From Octopus sinensis (lineage: Eukaryota), in NCBI RefSeq assembly GCF_006345805.1, contig NW_021836128.1, positions 124,001 to 188,000 on the forward strand: 64,000 nucleotides of DNA, given 5' to 3'. This document shows, in pieces, positions 16,839-50,133 of the stretch; the stretch's first letter is position 1, and the number at the start of each line of letters is the position of its first letter. The notes beneath the pieces were generated by a model. It was not told where the DNA came from, searched no databases, and saw nothing but the letters and a program-made list of their open reading frames with translations. Position numbers and translations under genes: made by a program.

Positions 16839-17772
16839 CAAATAAAATATATGTTAATTAATTTTTATTTAAATCAATTTTTTAATAAATTTTTTATTTA
16901 TTTAATAATTTTCTAAATTAATTCTATTTTTCTGAAAATTTAAAAATTTCTTTTTTAATATTTTTTTATTTGACGGATTGTTATTAGCATAAAATTCTGA
17001 TATTTATTCGATCAGAGAAAGTTGAATAATTTTTTGACCTCATTAATATATTTTATGTAAATATTGATTTTTAAACTTTGATAACTTGTATTATTAATAA
17101 CGTGAAATATTTACATAGAGACATTTTAAAGAGTATGTTTGTTAAATTTCAATAGATTGTCAAGGAGTTTGGATATCTTACAGTTATAGATGAAACTATT
17201 TGGGTTTGTTATATTAAATTTTCAACTCTGTTGGAATTGTTGTATCAATTCGTATTTCTGCGAGTTTCTACAGATATACTACCAAGCAAGCACAAAGAAT
17301 TATCGCAAGAAAATGATGTGCAAATAATTATGTTTTTTATTTTAACCGAGAAGATATTCCTTATTTGACTGTCACGTTGAACTGAAGAATATTTTTTAGT
17401 AAAATGTAAATATTTTCAGCTTCTTTATTTACGATGAAACCCGGAGTATATAACGATATAAAATTTTATCAATCATCTGCTGAACACGTGATCATGGCCG
17501 GGTTTGCTAGAATTTCCTTTAATTTATCACGTGAAAGGCGCATCAGGTTGACTATAAAAGCGATGTGCCTGATATTTATCGAAAATGTTATTCGGTCGTA
17601 TATTAAAAGCATCATGGTTTTAGATCGAGATGTCCTTGTGGCTGCAGAATATCTCTTCTTAATGAACAAATCCGTCAATCATCAATTAAATTCTTATTTT
17701 TTTAATAACAATTTTGTTTATCAAAATTTCGCAACAAAGGTAAAACGAATAATTTTTACTGGCAGACAAAGA

Positions 17773-18242
17773 AATGTCCGGAGTCGAACAATAGCTTCAG
17801 CATAGAGAGCATATTAGGAACTAATTCGGATATTTCCTCTGTGTACTCTTCCGACACTGAGCCATCTAATCCGCTCATTTTGGCTCCTTTTGAACACAAA
17901 ACAGTCAATCAAGGAACTCAGGGAGAAAATATGAGAGTTCGAAAATTCGTATGTCATTACGAAAACTGTGGAAAGGCCTATTTCAAAAATTCTCACTTAA
18001 AAACTCATTATCGGAAGCACACAGGTGAGGAATCCAAAATAACAACTTTAGGGGAGAAACCATACAAATGCAATTTTGAAAATTGTAGCAAATGTTTCTC
18101 GCGGTCAGATGAACTGGGGAGACACCGCCGCATACATACGGGAGAGAGGAACTACACGTGTCCTTACTGTCAGCTGAAATACATTCGTTCTGACCATTTA
18201 TCCAAACACGTCCAAAACAAACACAAAAAACAGAAAAGTTAA
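17773..18242 (+). CDS. Kruppel-like factor (3 C2H2 fingers, KLF9/10/11/13-like); start uncertain
   Basis: CHYENCGKAYFKNSHLKTHYRKHTG^EKPYKC...FSRSDELGRHRRIHTGERNYTCPYC...RSDHLSKH; 27-nt intron 18025-18051. Confidence 0.92.
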
Positions 18243-21000: not shown

Positions 21001-21289
21001 TTCAGGACTTATGAATAACATATTTCTTGATCTGATATTAATTTGGAGAATTTCAATCTATACATTAATTTTTTTAATTCTAAAAAATTGACTATTATCT
21101 ACACATCAAAATTTACAGGGTTATCTGAGCTATAATATCGAAAACGCAAGCATTATTGTTGACACTATATAAGTCTTGATGACCGTTTGTATTAAATTCT
21201 TTTTTTCAATTTAGAAACTAACTAAAAATCAACTTCAATATTGAAAAGGATATCGCAGTCTTGAAGACGACTGAAATCATACATTGCAA

Positions 21290-21885
21290 CGCTAAAGATG
21301 TGGACTATAGAGAAGGGTTTGACCCTAGCACCGGAGAAGAGCACCATTTCATGGTTGCGGAGAGGGAGTCGCTATGCGGAGTCGTGTGCATATGCGATGA
21401 GTAGCTATGTGATGGATCTCCCGAAAAGCAAAAATCTTTCTTACCTGGGAGCAACCATCAACTGTCGTGGCTCATACGTAGAGCATATAGCAAATCAGAG
21501 AAAGAGGAGTGTGAGGATCCTCAAAAGCTTAACCAGGTTCCATCTGGATCCGGAAACGTACATCTACGTATACAAAACGTGTGTGCAGCCAGTCCTCACA
21601 TATGGCTACGAGGGCTGGTACGGTACGGAGGAGAGTGACTACCTGATCGAACAGTTGGAAAAGACAAGACGTTTCGCTATGAAATTGGCTTACGGAGTAC
21701 AACTTGACGGAAGGTTAAAAGACTCACAAGAATCCTCTGTGCCCACGATCCGGATGGTCTTGGAGAATTGTCGTCAAACATGACTAGTATTGGGGATACG
21801 CATGGAAAGAGACACTTCGGTGCCTTGTTTTTATCTCCCCGCCGATGATTTCTTCTTTGTTTTTCTTTTCGCTCAATAAACGCTA
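21290..21885 (+). mobile_element. LINE 3' fragment (RT thumb/C-terminus plus 3' UTR)
   Basis: GLTLAPEKS, YLGATI, YKTCVQPVLTYG; homologous to 23350-24165. Confidence 0.8.
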
Positions 21886-23349: not shown

Positions 23350-24165
23350 AAAAGGATATGATTGGAATAAAAGAAGATAAAAAGAGGTGTCCCTCAGGGT
23401 TCTATACTGAGCCCGCTATTATTCAATCTTTTTCTTGCTGACATCCCGTTACCTACGGGTCGATCGAGTAATCTCACTGTATACGTGGACGACATTCTCG
23501 TGACTGATGTCTTGAGACGGAGTGATCTGTCATGGCGAAGGCTTGAACCATACCTATAAAGGATAATGGAAAGGGTATAACGCTGGCCCGTGACAAGAGC
23601 AAAGTTTGCAGGCTGTCGAAGCGGAGGAGCGAAACTGCTCGTGTCTTTGGAGTTGGGGACTTAAAACTTTCGCAAAACCTCCAATACCTTGAGGTTACAA
23701 TAGATGCCAGAGGCTCTTATAGAAATCATATCGATACCCAAAGAAAGAGAGCCGTTAAAATCCTACGAAGCCTTATCAGATTTCATCTGAGTCCCGAAAC
23801 ATACATCTACATATACAAGACACATGTACAACCGATTCTCACCTACGGGTTTGAGGGCTGGTATGACACAGGTGAGAGAGTTTGTTTAATCAACAAACTC
23901 GAGAAAACAAGGCGTTACGCCATTAAGTTGGCCTACGGTTTCGATCTCAAGGAAAAATTGGATAACTCATATGAATCCTGCGTCCCCAAAATACAGTCCA
24001 TCCTGGAGAAGGCGCAGTTGTTTTTTTAGTGGACATCAGATATCTAAAGTGTCTATCAGGGAAATATGCTGCTCAGTAGAGACACTCCGGTGCCTCATTC
24101 TTTTTAAATTTCCCGTCGTCGATAATGGCTAATTTTTCCTGTCTTCCTAACTAGTAAAATAAAAA
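23350..24165 (+). mobile_element. LINE fragment, RT core to 3' UTR
   Basis: RGVPQGSILSPLLFNLFLADIP, YVDDI, YIYIYKTHVQPILTYG. Confidence 0.85.
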
Positions 24166-36597: not shown

Positions 36598-37684
36598 ACA
36601 GTGAAAACCCTCGAATCCGCTGCTTCTCGAATCCGCCGCTTCTCGAATCCGCTTGTTTTAATCAAAAATTTGAAATTTCCTATGAATGATTCTTGAATCC
36701 GCTTGTTTCTCGAATCCGCTCCTCAAGTATTATGAAAAATAATTTTTTTATCTAATTGTAAGTTAAATTTAATTAACATTTTATAATTCTCATTACACGT
36801 TAAATTGTATTTTGTGATGCGTCGCTGTGTTAGACTTTCTATCAACGAAAAAATTTCTATACTACGTTATATTTCTGACAACCATTCGTTTCTGCACCTC
36901 AAATTTCCAGATTTTTTCTTCACGGTTAAAAAAGAAAATTTTTCCGAGAACTATAAACGACCTTAAATCAAAATCGGACCTTTTGAATAGGACTGACATC
37001 AAAAAATTAAACATAACGAGAATCCAAAACTCAAATTTAATGAAATTGATGTAGCGATGTTTTCCAGAATTTAAAGCAAGTCGTGGGTGGCTAGAAAAGT
37101 TTTAAATTACGAAATGGTATCAAGTAAGAAAATTTCACGGAGACAGTGGATCAGTAAATCATGATGAAAAATCTATTACTGATTTTAATGAAACAATGAG
37201 TTTAAAAATTGAACAATATGGATTGGACAATGTTATAATGCAGATGAAACTGTGTTTTTTACAAGGCGATTCCTTCCAAAAGTGTGTGCACCAAATCACG
37301 GCCTGGAATAAGTTGTCGAAGGATCGATTTTCGTTACTATTATGCGCAATTGTTCTGGTTCCGATAAAAGAAGGCCTGTGATGATAGGAAGATTCAAAAG
37401 TCCAAGGTGTTTTAAAAATTTCAACATTGGAAATATGTTACCTACACCCATTCCAATAAGGCATGGATGAACCGTGAAATTTTTAACAAGTGGCTCAGTG
37501 ATTTTGATTCTGAACTTGCAAAGAAAAAAAGAAAAATTCTACTTGTAATAGATCAATGTCCATCTCATCAAATTATTGTCACGTTAAACTCAATTGAAAT
37601 TCTTTTTTTGCCTTCTAGAACATCCTCGCTCTTGCAACCAATGGATCAAGGAATTATAAAATGCTTTAAAGCCGAATTTACCAA
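36598..37684 (+). mobile_element. pogo/Tigger element 5' part (left TIR and decayed transposase), cut by the Helitron 5' end
   Basis: TA-CAGTGAAAACCCTCGAATCCGC with repeated TCGAATCCGC; FKASRGWLEKF, DET, AWMNREIF, IDQCPSH, QPMDQGIIKCFK. Confidence 0.85.
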
Positions 37685-37704
37685 TCTTAATAATAAAATG
37701 GTAT

Positions 37705-37750
37705 GGTGTGTGTCTGTCTGTCTGTGTGTCTGTCTGTCTGTCTGTGTGTG
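37705..37750. repeat. (TG)/(TCTG)n microsatellite
   Basis: tgtgtgtctgtctgtctgtgtgtctgtctgtctgtctgtgtgtg. Confidence 0.95.
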
Positions 37751-37771
37751 CACACCAACTTCAAATTGGCA

Positions 37772-38390
37772 ATACGATGTCCTCGACTTACATGATGAGG
37801 TCCTTAAAACCTTCCCCCCAAAAAAAATTAAAAAAAATTTTTCTGCGTTTTGGTCAAAATGAACAACTACGATGTCCTCGACTTACATGATGAGGTCCTT
37901 AAAACCTTCCCCCCCAAAAAAAATTAAAAAAAATTTTCTGCATTTTGGTTAAAATGAACAACTACGATGTCCTCGACTTACATGATGAGGTCCTTAAAAC
38001 CTTCCCCCCCAAAAAAATTAAAAAAAAATTTTCTGCATTTTGGTTAAAATGAATAACTACGATGTCCTCGACTTACATGATGAGGTCCTTAAAACCTTCC
38101 CCCCCAAAAAAATTAAAAAAAAATTTTCTGCATTTTGGTTAAAATGAACAACTACGATGTCCTCGACTTTCATGATGAGGTCCTTAAAACCTTCCCCCCC
38201 AAAAAAATTAAAAAAAAATTTTTCTGCATTTTGGTTAAAATGAACAACTACGATGTCCTCGACTTACATGATGAGGTCCTTAAAACCTCCCGCCAAAAAA
38301 TCAAAAAATTATTTTCTGCATTTTGATTAAAATGAACAACGCGGATGTCCTCGACATTCATGATGAGGTCCATTAAAACTTTCCAGGCAA
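37772..38390. repeat. Tandem array, ~95-bp unit x ~6.5
   Basis: TACGATGTCCTCGACTTACATGATGAGGTCCTTAAAACC recurs at ~37773, 37868, 37963, 38058, 38153, 38249 and 38341 (last two diverged). Confidence 0.95.
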
Positions 38391-38635
38391 AAATCTCACG
38401 TATTAAGAATATCCTTGATGAAAACGACAGCGAGAATATTAACAATGATGAACTCCCAATTATTCGCGATAAAGAAATTCAATTCATCCTATGTTTTTCT
38501 CTTTAAAATTAAATGCATATATCATTAACGACCATGAATCAAAATTAAAGCTATTATCATAGAGTGTGCAATTAACAGATTTTGAAATGACAGCGCAATC
38601 AGAAGAATTTGCGTAAAAATATTAACTATTTAGTT

Positions 38636-38855
38636 AAGTTTTTCGTAAAGATTGAATTTATTTTCGGTATTCCTCTTTTCCTAAACTTTTTTATTATTCA
38701 AAAATAATTTTTTCAATAGATAACCGAAGGAGGGAAGACGACCTAAGAAAAGAAGTTTTTCGTAAAGATAGAATTTATTTTCGGTATGCCTCTTATCCTA
38801 AACTTTTTTATTATTCAAAAATAATTTTTTTAATAGATAACCGAAGGAGGAAAAA
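38636..38855. repeat. Tandem duplication of ~118 bp
   Basis: AAGTTTTTCGTAAAGAT...TAGATAACCGAAGGAGG present twice. Confidence 0.9.
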
Positions 38856-38904
38856 CGAAGCTGAAGAAAAAACGGTCAGCTTAATAAGGTAATTAATCAA
38901 ATCT

Positions 38905-39180
38905 TTTTTGTGTGTCGCTTTCTTGCCTGTCGCTTTTTTGTGTGTCGCTTTCTTGCCTGTTGCTTTTTTATGTGTCGCTTTCTTGCCTGTCGCTTTCTTG
39001 CCTGTCGCTTTCTTGCCTGCCGCATCTCTGCCTGCCGCATCTCTGCCTGCCGCATCTCTGCCTGCCGCATCTCTGCCTGCCGCATCTCTGCCTGCCGCAT
39101 CTCTGCCTGCCGCATCTCTGCCTGCCGCATTTCCGCCTGCCGCATCTCTGCCTGCCGCATTTCCGCATTTCCCCCCATCT
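38905..39180. repeat. 15-bp tandem repeats (TGTCGCTTTCTTGCC grading into TGCCGCATCTCTGCC)
   Basis: About 17 units directly visible, ending in CCCCCCATCTCACC. Confidence 0.95.
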
Positions 39181-39184
39181 CACC

Positions 39185-41265
39185 CAAATAAAAAAAGAAA
39201 AAAAAAAGGAAATTACAAAGAAACACGAAAAAATCAAATATAAAAAGTTAACAAATAAAAAAAAGAAAATAAAGCCCAAAAAAAAGAAAATAAAAAAAAA
39301 GAAAAAAAACTTAAAAAATTAAAAAGAAAATAAACAAAAAAAGAAAAAAAAACTTAATAAATAAAAAAAAGAAACTAAAAGACAAAAAAAGAAAAAAAAT
39401 TTAAAAAATAAAAAAAAATTTAAAAATAAAAAAAAATTTAAAAATAAAAAAAAATTAAAAAATAAAAAATTAAAAAACTTTTAAAAAATAAAAAAATGAA
39501 ATAAAAACACAATAAAAATCGAAAAAAAAACACAATAAAAATCAAAAAATTAAACAACTAAAAAATAAAAAAAGAAAATAAAACAAAAAAATCAAAAAAA
39601 GTAAATAAAACACAAAAAAAAGAATAAAAAAATAAAAACACAATAAAAAACAAAAAATAAAAAAACAAAAAATAAAAAATAAAAACAAAAAAAATTCAAA
39701 AAATAAAAAAAAAAATTTAAAAAATAAATGAAAAAAGAAAAAAAAATTAAAAAAATAAAAAAAGAAAATAAAAACACAATAAAAAACAAAAATAAGAAAA
39801 AATTCAAAAAAGAAAAAAAAGGAAATTACAAAGAAACACGAAAAAATCAAATATAAAAAGTTAACAAATAAAAAAAAGAAAATAAAGCCCAAAAAAAAGA
39901 AAATAAAAAAAAAAGAAAAAAAATTTAAAAATTAAAAGAAAATAAACAAAAAAAGAAAAAAAACTAATAAATAAAAAAAAGAAACTAAAAGACAAAAAAA
40001 AGAAAAAAAAAATTAAAAATAAAAAAATTTAAAATAAAAAAAATTTAAAATAAAAAAAAATTAAAAAATAAAAAAAATAAAAAAAATTTTAAAAATAAAA
40101 AAATGAAATAAAAACAAATAAAAATCGAAAAAAAAACAATAAAAATCGAAAAAAAAAAACAAATAAAAATCAAAAAATTAAAAAACTAAAAAATAAAAAA
40201 GAAAATAAAACAAAAAATCAAAAAAAGTAAATAAAACACAAAAAAAAGAATAAAAAAAAATAAAAAACACAATAAAAAACAAAAAATAAAAAAAATAAAA
40301 AAAATAAAAACAAAAAAAAATTCAAAAATAAAAAAATAAAATAAAACACCGCAAAAGACAAAAAAAAAATAAAAAACAAAAAATCGAAAAAAATAAAAAA
40401 AGGAAAATAAAACACAAAAAAAAAAGAAAAAAATTTTAAAAATAAAAAAAGAAAATAAAAACACAAAAAAGCAAAAAATAAGAAAATAAAAAACAAAAAA
40501 AATCAAAAAATACAAAAAAAGTAAAAAATAAAAAAAAGAAAAAAAATTTAAAACATAAAATAAAAAAAATTTAAACATAAAAAAAGAAAATAAAACCCAA
40601 AAAAATCAAAAAATAAGAAAATAAAAAAAAAAAAAAATTAAAAAATAAAAAAAAGTTAAAAAAAAAATAAAACACAAAAAATCAAAAAATAAGAAAATAA
40701 AAACAAAAAAATTAAAAAATAAAAAAAAGTTAAAAAATAAAAAAAAAGAAAATAAACAAAAAAAGAAAAAAAATTAAAAAATAAAACAAAAAATTTAAAT
40801 AAAAAAAAGAAACTAAAACACCAAAAAAGAAAAAAATTTAAAAAATAAAACAAAAAATTTAAATAAAAAAAGAAACTAAACACCAAAAAAGAAAAAATTA
40901 AAAATAAAACAAAAAATTTAAATAAAAAAAAGAAAATAAAACACAAAAAAAGAAAATATCTGTAGAAACCTCCGGGGCCATGAGCCAAAAATCGTTTGAA
41001 AATCGTCGTGAGGGTCGGGAATCTGATCTCGAGAAGACGGAAGAGCCTCGGGAGAAGCAATGGTTGTTCCAAAGAATATCCATTGCGATCCTGAGGGGCA
41101 AGTCTTCTCGATCATCAGCAGCTAAGATTATGATGATCATTTTCGCTCTTTGATTTTAATAAGATTCTATTTTTGATAAAACACAATAAAAAACAAAAAA
41201 TAAAAAAAAATAAAACACAAAAAAAAATTTTAAAATAAAAAAAGAAAATAACAAAAAAACTTTAA
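39185..41265. repeat. A-rich low-complexity tract with ~615-bp internal duplication
   Basis: Strongly A-biased plus strand; GGAAATTACAAAGAAACACG at ~39208 and ~39821. Confidence 0.9.
40958..41135 (+). mobile_element. CRE-like 3' fragment within the A-rich tract
   Basis: SVETSGAM... and KQWLFQRISIAILRG. Confidence 0.8.
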
Positions 41266-41451
41266 AATTTGTCTGCCGCCGTGTGTGCACACTTCAACAA
41301 ACCGTGCGCGGAACGCGGAAGCAACCGTACTGCTGGGCTCTAACCCCTGCCCCGTCGAGCACGCAGATCGAGCTGGATCTCTTAATTGATTCTTATTTTC
41401 ACTTAAAAATTATTTACTTTGAATTAAAATTAGATTAATTTTTTAACAGCC

Positions 41452-41645
41452 TATTAAGATAATGCTTAAGAGCCCTTACAGTTTCCGGAAATTTAGCTTA
41501 GTGACCTTGATTAGACAAACCACTTCAGATAGCAATTAAGATAAGGCTTAAGAGCCCTTTACAGTTTACGGAAATTAGGCTTAGTGACCTTGATTAGACA
41601 AACCACTTCAGATAGCAATTAAGATAAGACAAGGCTTAAGAGCGT
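41452..41645. repeat. ~83-bp tandem repeat x ~2.3 upstream of the Helitron ORF
   Basis: ATTAAGATAA.GCTTAAGAGCCCTTACAGTTT.CGGAAATT...CACTTCAGATAGCA repeated. Confidence 0.9.
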
Positions 41646-41692
41646 TAAATGTTCAATATGTATTACTGCGTGGCGTAAAAAATAAGATTAGT

Positions 41693-44600
41693 ATGGTGGG
41701 TAGTCAGAATATGGAGAGTTTCACCGAAGATATCGTGGATGCCAAAACAAACGAACAAACTGAGCTTGGGGGGAGTGTAAGTAATGTAGGTGCGGGCATA
41801 GGTAATATAGGTGTAGGAAATGCAGGAAATGTGGGCGCAGGAAGTGTAGGTAGTGTAGGTGCATGCGTAGGTAATCTAGGTGCAGGAAATGTAGGTAGTG
41901 TAGGCTTATGTAATGTCAGAGAAAATAAGATTACTCATCAGTTGTCAGAAGATCATCAATCGATCCGTTTCGATGAAAATAACTTCAGTAAAGAGGTATT
42001 AATATTAGATTTATTTTTAGTGTATGGAAACGGATTACCTATTGAGAAACAAAGAATATTTGGAAAATACACAGGTTTTAGATAATTTATGTAGCACGAA
42101 ACGTAAAAAAGTTAGTGTAGGAAATAATAATTTTAAACGATATAGTTTCGATGATATGAGTGTTAGTCTAGATAATAAATTTAACATTAAAGTAAATAGT
42201 TCAAATGAGACGTTTTCGATCTCAAATTTTAGACGAGAAAAGAATAGATTGCGCATGGCTATGAAAAGGGCAGCCGAGTCACAAGATCAAAAGGAACATC
42301 GACAAGAATGCAACAGATTAAGAGCAACTATAAGAAGGAGGCAAGAGACCGATGATATGAGGAATTTCAGAAAAGAACAAGATAGAATGGGGAAGGCTAT
42401 TACTAGGGAACAAGAGTCACAAGAACAGAGGGAACATAGACAAGAACAAGATAGAATGGGGAAGGCTATTAGTAGGGAACAAGAGTCACAAGAACAGAGG
42501 GAACATAGGCAGGAACAAGATAGAATGGGGAAGGCTATTAGTAGGGAACAAGAGTCACAAGAACAGAGGGAACATAGGCAGGAACAAGATAGAATGGGGA
42601 AGGCTATTAGTAGGGAACAAGAGTCACAAGAACAGAGGGAACATAGACAAGAACAAGATAGAATGGCAACGGCTATTAGTAGGGAACAAGAGACAGAAGA
42701 ACAAAGGGAACATAGGCAAGAGCAAAATAGAATGGGAACTGCTATTAGTAGGGAAAAAGAGACTCAAGAACAGAGGGAACATAGGCAAGAACAAGATAGA
42801 ATGGCAACGGCTATTAGTAGGGAACAAGAGACTCAAGAACAGAGGGAACATAGACAAGAACAAGATAGAATGGCAACGGCTATTAGTAGGGAACAAGAGA
42901 CAGAAGAACAAAGGGAACATAGGCAAGAGCAAAATAGAATGGGAACTGCTATTAGTAGGGAAAAAGAGACTCAAGAACAGAGGGAACATAGGCAAGAACA
43001 AGATAGAATGGCAACGGCTATTAGTAGGGAACAAGAGACTCAAGAACAGAGGGAACATAGGCAAGAACAAGATAGAATGGCAACGGCTATTAGTAGGGAA
43101 CAAGAGTCACAACAACAGAGGGAACATAGACAAGAACAAGATAGAATGGCAACGGCTATTAGTAGGGAACAAGAGACTCAAGAACAGAGGGAACATAGGG
43201 AAGAACAAGATAGAATGGCAACGGCTATTAGTAGGGAACAAGAGTCACAAGAACAAAGGGAACATAGGCAAGAACAAGATAGAATGGCAACGGCTATTAG
43301 TAGGGAAAAGAGACTCACAGACAACAAGGGAACATAGGCAAGAACAAGATAGAATGGCAACGGCTATTAGTAGGGAACAAGAGACTCAAGAACAGAGGGA
43401 ACATAGGGAAGAACAAGATAGAATGGCAACGGCTATTAGTAGGGAACAAGAGTCACAACAACAAAGGGAACATAGACAAGAACAAGATAGAATGGCAACG
43501 GCTATTAGTAGGGAACAAGAGACAAAAGAACAAAGGGAACATAGGCAAGAGCAAGATAGAATGGGAACTGCTATTAGTAGGGAACAAGAGACTCAAGAAC
43601 AGAGGGAACATAGGCAAGAACAAGATAGAATGGCAACGGCTATTAGTAGGGAACAAGAGTCACAACAACAAAGGGAATGCCGACGAGATCGGAACACAAG
43701 AAGAAATTCAGTTAGGAGGAACCAACTAACTCAGGATGAACATCAGACAGAAAATCGACTACGAGTTTCACGCAGGAATAGTAGGGTATCAAATTCTATT
43801 GGTTTAGAAAACACTGGATTTAATTATAATAGGGGCATTGAGTATAGAAATTTAGGTAATGTAGGTGCTTTAACGGAGATATGTACTTTTTGTTTAGCTA
43901 TGAAATTTAAGGGGGAAACTATCGGAATGTGCTGCAGTCGCGGAAAGGTACGTTTACCAGTTTTAGACCCGCCTCCTGAGCCTCTTTTAACACTGTTGAG
44001 GAATGATACACCATCATCTAGGCACTTCGTTGATAATATTCGCAGGTACAATAATGTTTTTCAGATGACATCTTTTGGTACAAGTGGAAATTTCAATCCG
44101 ACGGGCTATATGCCCACATTTAAGGTACTTGGGCAAGTGTATCACAGGATGGGTTCACTCCTTCCAAGTGAAGGCGAGGATTTTAAATTTTTACAAATTT
44201 ACTTTATAGATAATCACGAAGAACAATCTAACCGAAGATGTCTAGCAGATTCAAGACTACGAGGCAACATTATTAGTTCGTTGCAAAATATGTTGCAAAT
44301 GTGCAACACGTATATTTCATCTTTTAGATCTGTTCTGAGATCCACAGCAGATGAAGATTGTAAGGTAATTATACATGCAGATAGGACACCTGCAAATGAA
44401 CATAACCGTCGATACAACGCACCAACGTCAAACCAGGTTGGAATTCTAATAGTAGGTCAACACTATGACTCGAGAGACATAATAATAAACAAGAGATCCA
44501 CTGGATTAATGAGAATTTCAGAGACACATCGGTCATATGATGCACTTCAGTACCCATTATTATTTCCGAGAGGAGAGGATGGGTACAATTTTAAGGTAAT

Positions 44601-47600
44601 GCATTTTAATCCGTCGACTGGTTTAACTACTACTAAAAAAACCAGTTGTATGGAATTTTATTCTTATAGGTTGATGATAAGAGAGCAGGAATTCAACATT
44701 CTACATCGTACAGGCCAGTTATTTAATCAGTTTATTGTAGATATGTATGCGAAAATAGAGGCAGAGAGACTTCTCTACATTCGGTTGAATCAGCGGAAAC
44801 TGAGAGCAGAAGAGTATATACATCTAAGAGATGCCATAATGAATGACGGTAATGTGTCTAATGTAGGTCAAATGGTTATTTTGCCTTCGTCATTCACGGG
44901 AGGACCAAGATATATGCATGAGCGAACTCAAGATGCTATGACATACGTTAGAAATTACGGAACTCCGGATCTGTTTATCACTTTTACGTGTAATCCGAAA
45001 TGGCCAGAAATTAGTGATAACATATTTGTAGGACAAAAGGTCGAGTATAGACAAGACATCATAGCACGTGTTTTTAAACAAAAAGTCGATAAGATGATTG
45101 ATCTTCTATGCAAGGGACAGATTTTTGGGAAGACAAGATGCCACATGTATACAGTAGAGTGGCAAAAAAGAGGTTTACCACATATACATATATTAGTATG
45201 GTTAGTAACTAAAATTAGGCCTACAGAGATAGACGATTGCATACGGGCAGAATTGCCAAATCCAAATGAAGATAGAGAATTATACGAGATCATCAAAAGA
45301 AATATGATACATGGTCCGTGTGGCATATATAACAGAACATCACCGTGTATGCAAGATGGTAAGTGTTCTAAAGGGTACCCAAAAAACTTAATAATTAACA
45401 CGCAAACAGGTGAAAATGGATTTCCATTTTACCAGAGAAGGGGAGCAGCTGAAGGAGGATATACTGCAACCCTCCACGAAGGAAAAGAAAATGAAATAAC
45501 AGTTGATAACAGATGGATAGTGCCTTATAATCCACTATTAAGTAAGATTTTTGATGCACATATCAATGTGGAATTTTGTAATTCAATTAGATCAATTAAA
45601 TATGTATGTAAGTACATTAATAAAGGGTCGGATCAGGCAATCTTTTCAATAGAGCAACGTGATGAGCCAACTTTTTATCAACATGGACGCTATATCTGCA
45701 GTAATGAAGGAGCATGGAGAATTTTTGGATATCCGATTCATGAAAGATATCCATTGGTTATGCATTTAGGGGTTCACCTGGAAAATGGGCAAAGAATTTA
45801 TTTCACAGAGCAGAATGCACGCAATCAAGTTACAAATGCAAGAAATTCAACTCTGATGGCATTCTTCGAATTATGTCGTACAGATCAATTTGCAAAGACT
45901 ATATATTATGTTGATGTTCCTAGATATTATACATGGGATGTCGCGGGGAAGAGATTTAAGAGAAGGATAAGAGGAAATCCAGTAAATGGACATTCAGGAA
46001 TTGTAAGTGCAGATGCATTGGGTAGAGTATATACAGTGCATCCAAATAATTTTGAATGTTATTGTGTTAGGTTACTTTTGCACACCGTACGAGGGCCAGA
46101 ATCTTTCACTGATCTACGGACTGTAGATGGAGTACTCTGCGAAACATACAGAGAAGCCTGTTTTAAATTAGGTCTTTTAGAGGATGATAATCACTGGAAT
46201 CAGACTTTAACAGAAGCTGAACTTGCAGATTCCCCATCGCGACTAAGGTATTTATTTACTTTGATGCTAGCCCATTGTGGGTTAGCAAATCCACAACAAC
46301 TGTGGGAAGGTCACCGAGAAAGCATGTGTGAAGATATATTAAGAGAGAAGAATAGATTGAGTTTCGATGCAGAGATTTTCAACATTGGATTAATCATGAT
46401 AGATAGATTGCTAATATCTATCGTTGGTAAGAGTGTAGGTGAATTTGGTTTTATAATCAGCGATATTCATAATATTAATTCATTTGATGAGCATTATAAT
46501 TTAGAAGAACTTCGAACAATAGTGGAAGAAAGAGAACAAAGCTTAACCACTGGCCAGTTGGAGGTATACAGAGAAATTAATCGAGTCATCCAAGAAGAAA
46601 ACGGTTCTATCATTTTTATTGATGCACCGGGTGGAACAGGTAAGACCTATCTTCTAAATCTATTATTAGCTAAGGTCAGAAGCGAAAATAAACTAGCTTT
46701 AGCAGTTGCATCTTCTGGAATTGCTGCAACTCTTTTAGATGGCGGTCGAACCGCACATTCGACATTCAACATTCCGTTGAATCTCTCATATACTACTGAA
46801 CCGGTTTGTAATGTAAAAAAAAATTCAACTACGGGTAATAGAATTATGCATTCTAGGTTAATTGTTTGGGATGAATGTACGATGGCTCATAAAGGCGCAT
46901 TCGAAGCAGTTGATCGAACATATAGAGATATCAAGAATTGTAGCGACCATTTATTTGGGGGAGCAATAGTTGTATTGGCAGGTGATTTTAGACAGACGCT
47001 GCCAATTATTCAAAGAGGGACGCCTGCGGATGAATTGAATGCCTGCCTCAAATCGTCATATTTGTGGACACACGTGAAAAAGGTAAGCTTAGATGTAAAT
47101 GTACGTGCACATTTACAAGGCGTTAATAGCATATTCCCACAAATCCTTCTAGATATTGGAAATGGGGCAATCACTTCAGAAATGCAAGACCAGAAAATTA
47201 GGCTACCGGAAGAATTATGTATTTTCGTAGAAACAGCAGAAGAATTATTGAATGCCGTCTATTCCGAACTATCTGAACACTACGTGAATTTCGACTGGCT
47301 GCGTGAACGAGCTATATTAGCTCCACTTAATGATGAGGTACTTAATATAAATTTAGATTTATTAATGAAAATCCCTGGCAGAGAAAGAATATATAAATCG
47401 GTCGACGTTATTATGGACCATGAAAGGGCCTGCGAATATCCTGTAGAATTTTTAAATTCCTTAGATCCATCTGGAATGCCGAATCATCTATTGAAATTAA
47501 AAATAGGTGTACCGGTTGTGTTACTCCGCAATCTAGCGCCACCTAAATTATGCAATGGTACAAGGTTGGTTATCAAGAATTTGATGGCTAACGTAATAGA

Positions 47601-47906
47601 AGCGACAATATTAACAGGTAATTACAGAGGTGAGGATGTTTATATCCCACGAATACCTCTGATTTCGGAAGAATTACCTTTTAGATTTAAGAGACTACAA
47701 TTTCCGCTGAAGATAAGTTTTGCTATGACAATAAACAAGGCCCAGGGACAGTCTTTAAAGGTAGTAGGCTTATTTTTAGAGAACGAGTGCTTTTCACATG
47801 GCCAGCTGTATGTGGGGTGCTCAAGGGTAGGTAGAAGAGAAATTTATTTATATTTGCCAAGGATGGACGGACTGCAAACATCGTTTATCCACAGGCCTTA
47901 GAATAA
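41693..47906 (+). CDS. Helitron Rep/Helicase (~2060 aa reconstructed): Gly-rich exon, STPR-like repeats, Zn motif, HUH Rep, PIF1 helicase
   Basis: DLFITFTCNPKW, VEWQKRGLPHIH, IKYVCKYINKG; APGGTGKT, IVWDE, GDFRQTLP, FAMTINKAQGQS, HGQLYVGCSRV; 25-nt intron 41996-42020; frameshifts at ~43310-43330 and ~47840. Confidence 0.95.
42276..43726 (+). repeat. Coding 69-bp (23-aa) tandem repeat, ~21 copies
   Basis: Unit ETQEQREHRQEQDRMATAISREQ. Confidence 0.97.
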
Positions 47907-48251
47907 GGTTATATCAAAGCAGGTCGCATTTATATATCTACATAAATTTATAGTTATTTAAGGAAACTGCGAGCGTAGCGAGCAGGGCCTCCGCAGGAGC
48001 TAGCTCGCAGTGAGCGAAGCGAACTGCTGAGCTAGTATTTAATAATATGTCGCGAGCGCAGCGCCGACCCGAGCGTAGACGCGACTTGACAGCTAAAAGC
48101 CTATCATCAACAATATATTTATTAAATTATTTAAAATTTTAACATGATTTAAAATTAAAATTGAAATACACTTAAGTTTTCCATTGAATCCATAAAATAA
48201 TTTATAGTAGACCTTAATAGAAAAGTTAAAATCAATGAATACTGAACGCTA

Positions 48252-50133
48252 CAGTGCGACCTCGAATTGGGGAAAACCAAGTAGCGGGGAAACCCTCTTT
48301 TTTGGGGAAGGAAACCTTGCTTTTGGGGAAATATTTTTGCCATCCCTATAAAATACGATGATTTTTAATGAAATAAACCCCCTACCGGGGAAAAATTTTA
48401 TATTATCATAAACGATTAATTAATATATTTGTATAATTTTTGATTTATTATTATTTATTTATTGTAACCTGTTTTTCCAAATTTGTAATCAATAATTTTA
48501 AAATTTATTTAACCTGGTAACTTAGTTAGTTAGCTAATTAACCTGATAAAAATTGAAATTATCAATTTTTAAAGTTATTTTATAAATTTTAGAAAGCCAA
48601 TGCCTAGAAAACTAAATCAAAGTGAAAAGATCAGAATTTGCAAGGATATACAGTCGGGTCATAAGGACAAAATGATTTGTGAAAGATTTAACATCTCTAA
48701 AGGAATGCTATACCGACTAAAAAAGAAAAGGGAAGGAATCTTAGCTCAAGGTTTCTCAACATCCGAAGGGACAATTGGATACGATTTGAATGCCCAAGTT
48801 TACGAGATTTTTCGTAATCTCAGGTCGAAAGGTTTCCCAATTAATGGGCCAACCTTAAAGCTTATTGCACGTAAAATTGCGTATAGAAATTCAAATCATG
48901 ATTTCACTGCTTCTAATGGATGGCTTTACAGATTTAAGAAACAATTCGAAATAAAATTCAGAATATTACATGGCGAATCACGATCAGCTGATAAAGAAGG
49001 TGCGGAAAACTTCCGATCAACTTTCAATGATTTGCTTGAAAACTATGGGGGAGAAAACATTTTCAACTGTGATGAAACTGCATTATTTTATAAAGCTGTT
49101 TCCAAAAAGAGTTTTGTTGAAAAAAATGAGTCACACAGCGGACATAAAATAAGAAAAGAACGTATGACACTTCTTTTGTGTTGCAGTTTCACAGAGAAAA
49201 ATATAAACCGCTTATAATTGGGCGTACGAAGTCACCAAGAGTATTAAAAGGTGTGAATCTGAGAGAAATTGGCATTGAATATGATGCTTCGTGCAAAGCC
49301 TGGATGACAAAAAATATTTTTGAAAATTGGTTATCTCGATTTAACGAGGAAATGAGAGAGAAAAGAAGGAAAATAGCATTGTTAATTGATAATGCAACTT
49401 GTCATGCTGTTTCTCTCAAACTTTCAAACGTCGACGTAATATTTTTTCCAAAAAATACAAGTTCCTTAATTCAGCCATGTGACCAAGGGATAATAAAGGC
49501 ATTTAAGAATCATTTTAATAACTGGATTATGAAAACAATTATCTATGATAAAAATCCTGCAGGGCAAATAGATGAAGCAATAAAGGGAATTACAATATTG
49601 GATGCTATTTCATGTTCGAAATTGGCATGGGACGAGATTACAGACACTTCAATACAACATTGCTTTGAAAAAGCTTTGGAATATGACTGTCGGGGAAAAA
49701 GAGGACATCGAAAGAAAGTCTGATTAATTCCGATATTGTGGAAAATGCGATTTTGGAGAGTTTCTGGGATGATAACAGTAGTGATGAAGAGGACTGCAGC
49801 GAACAATTTATGGAACATTTGGATGATCAACAAGTTATAAACAATACGGAATGCGCATTCACAATGCTGCTAAATGTTATTAAGCAAGAGACTCCGGAAA
49901 ATGTACTTGATCTATTCAGATTCAAAGCAAATATTATGAGTTCGATGCGAAAAAAACAAAATACTCGATTAAAATTAACTGATTTTTTATTAAAAAATAA
50001 AAATTGTAGTTACCCGTCTCGGTTATATTATTAAGAGAGATATCGAACAGGCGAGACCTAAATTTAATGAAAAACCTTTTTTTGGGGAAAACCTCAAAAT
50101 TGGGGAAAAATTTCCCAATTCGAGGTCGCACTG
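48252..50133 (+). mobile_element. Complete pogo/Tigger transposon, 1882 bp
   Basis: Perfect 20-bp TIR CAGTGCGACCTCGAATTGGG (48252-48271 / 50114-50133); TA on both flanks; subterminal GGGGAAA repeats. Confidence 0.97.
48600..50034 (+). CDS. pogo/Tigger transposase (CENP-B-type HTH + DD30D), two frameshifts
   Basis: GFPINGP, FTASNGWLYRFK, CDETALF, IDNATCH, QPCDQGII with 30 residues between the 2nd and 3rd Asp; frame breaks near 49195 and 49700. Confidence 0.92.

Follow-up and report, generated by a model that had tools for sequence, protein, structure and literature searches.

The window analysed here comprises 64,000 nucleotides (nt) of contig NW_021836128.1 from the Octopus sinensis assembly GCF_006345805.1 (positions 124,001 to 188,000 of the forward strand). 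It contains a Helitron whose transposase carries, ahead of its Rep nuclease and PIF1-like helicase (together RepHel), an array of 22 repeats of 23 amino acids (aa) that are related to the STPR units of the silkworm DNA-binding protein FMBP-1. The original prediction, made from the letters alone, had outlined this transposase gene at 41693..47906, and the gene is found there; the whole element is larger, extending over 10,351 base pairs (bp) from 37685 to 48035 as judged by comparison with sister copies, and both its ends and its recombinant origin had been missed. Copies are designated A, B or C according to the type of their array. The features, all on the forward (+) strand, are as follows.

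37685..37712, +: left terminus, 5'-TC after a flanking A; the start is common to copies with differing flanks
37707..37749, +: 4-bp microsatellite (TGTC)n immediately inward of the left end; lineages A, B and C all have it, and in A and B it measures 24-68 bp
37773..38384, +: tandem repeat of 95 bp in subterminal position, 6.5 copies, from tandem repeat analysis and copy comparison
38636..41628, +: non-coding left arm with a 117-bp duplication, 15/30-bp repeats, a long A-rich tract and an 83-bp duplication; common to sister copies
41693..41995, +: exon 1 (303 nt, 101 aa), ATG at 41693; Gly/Val-rich, of low complexity, no Pfam family
41996..42020, +: likely intron of 25 nt, GT-AG, phase 0
42021..42206, +: first part of exon 2, including a short run of basic residues
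42207..43725, +: 22 STPR-related units of 23 aa in tandem, with basic end units and an acidic, near-identical core
43305..43330, +: reading frame disrupted in unit 16 by a net gain of one base (70-nt spacing)
43862..43866, +: crossover, A2 type to the left and B1 type to the right, between array linker and zinc-finger-like motif
43882..43935, +: zinc-finger-like motif CxxC...CC, start of the conserved transposase body; aligned to Helraiser 7LCC and present in 116 of 121 proteins
44656..45615, +: Rep (HUH) nuclease, PF14214 at 205 bits; HUH motif near 45181, two-tyrosine motif at 45601
46543..47906, +: PIF1-like helicase, PF05970 at 214 bits; Walker A at 46624, Walker B at 46867, later motifs; stop at 47904-47906 in the frame of the sister copies
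47839..47842, +: one base lost from an A run, private to this copy; last ~20 codons altered
48000..48035, +: right terminus, a hairpin ending in CTAG (48032-48035), then a flanking T

We regard it as nearly certain that this element is a young HLE1 Helitron with a mosaic structure. Insertion takes place between A and T without duplication of the target, with A preceding the TC in 12 of 13 outer left ends and T following CTAG in 10 of 10 ends; four further internal left-end duplicates are preceded by C. The right-end hairpin folds with -13.4 kcal/mol (z -2.5; 3 of 200 shuffles were equally good). The first 28 nt of the left terminus have 415 exact matches in the assembly (control: 0), and among the 100 matches listed in ascending contig order, the first contig is C49; none of the coding copies found lies on a chromosome-sized contig. 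The RepHel parts of the copies are 99.6-100% alike, pointing to recent spread. Hallmarks of HLE2 (Helentron/Helitron2) are lacking: the DUF6570 and endonuclease families are absent from the sister-copy protein P0001, and the insertion sites are A|T rather than T|T.

The transposase gene and its host

The Gly-rich exon 1 had been proposed to join the following open reading frame (ORF) through a 25-nt GT-AG intron, and the sequence bears this out. The joined exons are in frame with the ORF at 42021, and the unspliced frame stops after 130 aa. One contig from run X2 matches 41698-42109 with 0 mismatches and skips exactly the 25 letters of the intron, which is kept in all 18 genomic copies covering the site and missing from none (21 stretches were examined, three of which do not cover it). 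Lineage B has a 33-nt intron at the identical place. Exon 1 is open in five of the six copies having the ATG, and one carries an in-frame 45-nt expansion. The gene is thus likely to be spliced through this intron; X2, with no cover of 43700-46327 at 95% likeness, is uninformative on expression. The basic stretch in 42021-42206 is a possible nuclear localisation signal.

The Rep and PIF1 domains had been called intact. Their catalytic motifs are indeed present, and Pfam recognises Helitron_like_N, PIF1 and Pif1_2B downstream of the array, but the frame of the window copy is broken in unit 16 and again at about 47839-47842. The first of these breaks lies where a genuine frameshift had been named as a possible objection (~43320); it is private to the window copy, the sister arrays on contigs C12605 and C2533 being free of indels. 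Compared column by column with the majority of six copies over 4 kb of RepHel, the window copy shows a single substitution and a single deletion; of the 29 deleted bases in these six copies, 24 lie in homopolymer runs, and 26 are private, which is the pattern of long-read errors. Both frame breaks are presumably assembly errors or the outcome of very recent decay. The copy on C12605 has a single open frame of 1763 aa (P0001) with 15 units, Rep and helicase, and a break of its own just before this frame, and the copy on C2533 is open from exon 1 across the array into Rep. P0001 aligns to the Helraiser transposase with an E value of 7e-262.

Tiny introns also occur in other genes. In a C2H2 zinc-finger gene at 17709-18242 of the window, which serves as internal control, removal of 27 nt (18025-18051) restores a finger linker in frame. 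For a kinase on C9082, the candidate introns measure 24-28 nt. In a related kinase, the intron is ~22 nt long on two unplaced contigs, versus ~1.1 kb in a homologue on chromosome C21. Since neighbouring genes have introns of 24-28 nt, the contig likely stems from a tiny-intron parasite. Dicyemids inhabit the kidneys of cephalopods, and we consider it quite probable that the host of the element is a dicyemid co-assembled with its own host. Average lengths given for dicyemid introns are 26.2 nt (PMC2222250) and, genome-wide, 38 nt (PMC6736024). The database protein nearest to the transposase, P0003, is labelled octopus; as the unplaced contigs likely belong to a second organism, gene models there may carry the wrong species. 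Gene-dense unplaced contigs (C12599, C9082, C8593, C9550) have introns of 22-33 nt, unlike chromosome C21.

The repeat array and its relatives

Tandem Repeats Finder reports 18.9 copies of a 69-bp unit at 42373-43677 with 92% match. The original estimate of about 21 units holds, there being 21 when counted from 42276 and 22, the number used here, when divergent end units are included; the 21 readable units are all in STPR register and keep E1, S/T2 and R9. Recent expansion, as suspected from a duplicated triplet, is likewise borne out by a 207-nt block of three units that is present twice with 1 difference. Core units have a net charge of -1 to -3, the end units of +3 and +5. Repeat counts across the genomic copies gave 14, 15, 17, 18, 22, 22 and 26 units (the last on C12411) in the seven A-type copies with both array ends; the number varies in whole 69-bp steps, and unit orders differ, although the copies are 97-100% alike. 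B-type arrays have 7, 11 and 13 units in the three of six copies that could be measured, and C-type arrays have about six. The array is homogenised within each lineage, and a comparison of the commonest units between lineages A, B and C finds 7-11 of 23 residues in common. Among the element copies, unit number shows no relation to the number of 95-bp repeats or to the length of the (TGTC)n tract. New here are the spread of 14-26 units among near-identical copies, the acidic drift, and the length and variability of the array.

The assignment to STPR stood in part. Pfam PF21107 (cut-off 27 bits) matches neither the window array, scanned whole and in seven pieces, nor the B and C arrays. Kinship is supported by a unit matrix derived from 125 units of 21 Pfam-labelled relatives, with E1, T/S2, E4, Q5, R6, R9, L10, R14, R16, S20 and R21 as main features. 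With the lead-in and the broken unit left out, all 20 of the window units that were scored have their best fit in register (p 0.0003-0.012 versus shuffles), and without the four seed columns they still reach p 0.0003-0.026. In a search of 1.84 billion proteins with the array, 19 of the best 40 of 78 matches exceed the PF21107 cut-off, and 28 of 58 aligned members match this family. A profile built from the array and 57 library matches ranks FMBP-1 (5D23) first, with an E value of 4e-11.

Structure prediction gave a divided answer as to the helical nature foreseen for the array. From the alignment, AlphaFold predicts 20-residue helices with 3-residue breaks, recurring every 23 residues. Against 48,161 chains this model finds 5D23 first (Z 7.2, rmsd, i.e. 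root-mean-square deviation, 0.6 over 64 residues); among helical repeats such a Z is modest, and it depends on the alignment. Foldseek found no match for either array model, and the ESM Atlas one unnamed match at 0.78, which is uninformative. A single-sequence search of solved structures returned only the 23-aa neck repeat of the C-type lectin 3JQH (E 3.5e-6), which we rejected as a match of period because profile, whole-library matches and position all indicate STPR.

The kinship is challenged by the failure of the array in Pfam, where two assembly controls score 45.7 and 66.1 bits for PF21107, and by unit scores of 2-14 bits, which true members reach only in their low tail (leave-one-out median 24). 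Likewise, AlphaFold predicts one straight helix from the single sequence, so it is the aligned relatives that introduce the helix kinks; 5D23, moreover, was solved long ago and may have been learnt by the predictor. Taking sequence and model comparisons together, the unit is STPR-related, yet it is not filed as a member of PF21107; Pfam evidently overlooks divergent STPR arrays.

The novelty of a Helitron with STPR repeats had been overstated, as the association is already described in PMC11417382 and as PF21107 occurs in the same protein in 21 of the best 120 of 1742 relatives (969-3086 aa only). Unit numbers were determined with the matrix in 102 relatives with an N-terminus of at least 60 aa. 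At least one unit is found in 85 of them (shuffles: 1 of 104), with a median of 3, eight proteins with at least 10 and a maximum of 16. The 22 units of the window and the 26 of C12411 are the longest arrays found, so that the claim of unusual length stands; the array is unusual by degree, not in kind. In most close relatives, the STPR repeats are part of the transposase and not a separate captured gene.

STPR-like repeats were met elsewhere as well. A separate chromosomal Helitron family (L102-L105; C1, C3, C23 and C28) joins RepHel in frame to four STPR units that are unlike one another, and its left end lacks a 4-bp tract. Three clustered short ORFs (L061, L073 and L076; C3:141.94-141.97 Mb) carry about four basic STPR units above the Pfam cut-off with no Helitron body in frame and are possible host STPR genes. 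On the chromosome-sized contig C29 (L085; 2.62-2.65 Mb and 3.03-3.05 Mb), there are very long, satellite-like arrays of 69 bp with more than 20 Pfam matches to STPR. In P0126 and P0145, STPR-like repeats stand upstream of DUF6570, indicating that HLE2 transposases can carry them.

Exchange of the array between lineages

Segment identities divide the copies into three groups. A1 consists of the window and four further copies; A2 has the same array and a RepHel part 86-92% alike; B1 has another array, a left part 70-81% alike and a RepHel part 99.4-100% alike. The change of affinity is sharp. Left of 43862, 136 informative sites are of A2 type and 2 of B1 type, and right of 43866, 395 are of B1 type and none of A2 type. 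This crossover is common to five copies on five contigs, and because an X1 contig spans 43700-44522 with 0 mismatches, the junction is not an assembly chimera. In the simplest reading of these sequences, A1 would be a recombinant that received its left arm and array from A2 and its enzyme core and right end from B1.

Further support for recombination comes from C8713, which has an A-type left arm with a type-2 right end, and from X1, X2 and X7 contigs that link B-type repeats to the helicase near 46825-46856. In the B elements, the first ~25 nt and the microsatellite agree with those of A, and the subterminal repeat is a 96-bp variant about 80% alike to the 95-bp repeat. The 5' ends of the A2 coding copies were not recovered, owing to contig ends and nested insertions. 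With a ratio dN/dS of 0.13 over 1335 codons, the two RepHel cores have diverged under purifying selection; the parts flanking the array evolve faster (0.46-0.47 over 69 codons each). The clean swap of an arm between lineages is new here, no report of an STPR arm exchanged between Helitrons having been found in titles and abstract starts (subscription journals and Repbase Reports lay outside this coverage). The family, recently active and confined here to one organism, is natural test material: the same core occurs with arms A and B, the same arm occurs on two cores, arm C adds a third type, and the arrays range from about 6 to 26 units.

Several observations concern derivatives and surroundings of the element. 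At window positions 46825-47435 and 47682-48036, X1, X2 and X7 contigs show an apparently abundant, internally deleted derivative in which B-type repeats are joined to the helicase and 47436-47681 is skipped. B-type elements on C12465, C8713, C8320 and C9634 have a tandem second left terminus ~320-340 bp inside the first. In the left arms of C12605 and C9004, the A-rich tract harbours a nested reverse-transcriptase-like element; C-terminal pieces of similar kind occur at 21265-21783 and 23547-24029 of the window. A DDE_1 (Tigger/pogo-like) fragment at 37416-37684 terminates at the left end of the Helitron, and a frameshifted CENP-B/Tc5-DDE_1 transposase (48573-50034) adjoins its right side. 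The GC-rich, partly self-complementary segment at 48037-48100, directly after the CTAG end, may be the end of another abundant element; the X1 depth peaks in the bin 47642-48298.

Proposed role and known systems

In the literature covered, it is not settled how a Helitron transposase locates the left end of its element when the DNA is double-stranded. The best explanation overall, which we hold to be probable but far from secure, is a young, likely spliced HLE1 Helitron with an exchangeable, DNA-gripping repeat arm. Its transposase carries, upstream of the Rep-helicase core and in frame with it, 14-26 STPR-related repeats. These would act as an exchangeable accessory arm that likely takes hold of double-stranded DNA at the left end ahead of cleavage by the nuclease. 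The array presumably grows and shrinks through slippage or unequal exchange, with selection keeping it as protein. A few units at once, perhaps the basic end units, would contact DNA, and array length would therefore matter little. That the array grips double-stranded DNA at the left end is a tentative suggestion drawn by analogy. The Helraiser transposase nicks at the 5' TC and needs the left end, and its N-terminal 489 aa are needed for DNA binding and cleavage (PMC5876387, PMC4778049). In FMBP-1, every STPR helix spans 4 bp along the major groove (PMC4856987).

A number of findings speak against this reading. The Helraiser deletion also removed the zinc-finger-like part and thus did not isolate the repeats. 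The acidic core has the lowest mean charge among 67 proteins with at least two units, and of the nine FMBP-1 contact residues (R6, R9, L10, M13, S14, Y16, A17, R20 and L21; PMC4856987), only R6 and R9 remain, the other seven being absent from the core. B units are weakly constrained, with a pN/pS of 0.71 among B types. As 37 of the 102 relatives have 0-1 unit, the array is not required by all Helitrons. Moreover, the array adjoins the left arm, so that one crossover carries both, interacting or not. With regard to the gene itself, the splicing evidence is a single contig from a run not recorded as RNA, and among the assembled copies none is open from ATG to stop.

In view of core charge, contacts and unit number, which tracks no repeat of the element, the proposal that the long core binds DNA or AT-rich targets is so far not supported. 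The expanded core might instead be a tolerated coding minisatellite, an acidic helical spacer of STPR descent that does not bind DNA and leaves binding to the basic end units and the zinc-finger-like domain. We consider this rather unlikely but the most serious alternative, as it accommodates the contrast in charge between core and end units, the seven altered contact residues, the free variation in length among near-identical copies and the plain helix of the single-sequence model. It accords less well with the retention of E1, S/T2, R6, R9, R14 and R21 as in Helitron STPR units and with a pN/pS of 0.20 among 11 A unit types; some Pfam-positive relatives, too, are neutral or slightly acidic.

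It is unlikely that the homogeneous array reads the left-end (TGTC)n, one helix per 4 bp, thereby recruiting the transposase to its own and to non-autonomous ends. This notion is attractive because the periods agree, STPR helices wrapping the DNA major groove with 4 bp each (PMC4856987), and because such tracts, as (CTGT)n, are known from insect Helitrons (PMC4344730). Lineages A, B and C, all with homogenised arrays, have the tract 22-25 nt from the 5' TC; 14 of 15 measured A and B tracts are a multiple of 4 long; and in the chromosomal family with its four unlike units, all 3 ends found lack such a tract. However, A, B and C have the same kind of tract despite their differing units, and its length is independent of unit number (44 or 36 bp with 22 units, 64 bp with 15). 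For BmSTPR, the binding values are 8.4 micromolar with (agac)3, 5.4 micromolar with (gaca)3 and 0.135 micromolar with (atac)3, so that this repeat is bound 40-60 times more weakly than the best one. Slippage alone preserves a 4-bp register, the comparison involves two groups in two organisms, and 13 metagenome loci have no tract, most of them being too short to reach the left end. It is equally doubtful that the STPR arm is the end-recognition module of the Helitron, its homogenised array reading the 4-bp microsatellite, with whole arm-plus-end cassettes exchanged between cores by recombination at domain borders; if true, this would explain the (CTGT)n near the 5' end of many animal Helitrons and would offer a natural, length-tunable DNA-binding scaffold.

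Very unlikely is the selection of AT-rich target DNA for insertion by the array, modelled on the preference of FMBP-1 for AT-rich sequence. BmSTPR does favour AT-rich repeats, and the flanks observed are mostly AT-rich; yet the residues of the thymine-methyl pocket are lost, and such flanks are to be expected both from this genome and from Helitrons in general. An assembly artefact as the source of the long array or of the mosaic is hardly credible in spite of the many single-base losses in runs and a garbled-looking unit 16, given seven copies on seven contigs that differ in unit order and number and a crossover shared by five copies and spanned by a contig without mismatch.

Among known systems, the arm swap recalls the 5' switching of LINE retrotransposons (bioRxiv 10.1101/2022.11.04.512097), in which a 5' part is reportedly exchanged on a conserved enzyme core; these are retroelements, and the likeness is an analogy only. 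The association of STPR with Helitrons, and an exchangeable module of this kind, have already been noted. In HELIANO (PMC11417382), the only relevant work among the papers listed to link the two, STPR is among 20 extra domains, occurs almost only in HLE1 and belongs to the 17 placed in ORFs other than RepHel; passages of PMC13085455 and PMC13286980 contributed nothing further on STPR. The HLE1 Helitrons of HELIANO resemble the present element in having STPR-type repeats upstream of RepHel, as does the second family in this assembly with its four units at the same place. They differ in that STPR is counted there in ORFs apart from RepHel, with no unit numbers in the passages of PMC11417382 consulted, whereas here 14-26 units stand in frame, in an array that is acidic, falls below the Pfam cut-off, follows a spliced exon and is swapped between lineages.

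With Helraiser (Helibat1, 7LCC), the element has in common the TC and CTAG ends, the 3' hairpin, the zinc-finger-like motif, the HUH-Y2 Rep and the PIF1 helicase (residues 322-1741 aligned). Ahead of the zinc-finger-like motif, however, Helraiser has ~120 charged, weakly alignable residues as compared to ~730 predicted here. FMBP-1 of Bombyx mori (5D23, 5D2Q, 5D2S) shares the 23-residue period and E1, T/S2, R6 and R9, of which Glu1, Thr/Ser2 and Arg9 define STPR (PMC4856987); a zig-zag of ~20-residue helices is predicted for the array from the alignment, but not from the single sequence. In contrast to the 22 acidic units found here, it has four basic ones (three to seven in the survey of PMC4856987), and it is a host transcription factor rather than a transposase.

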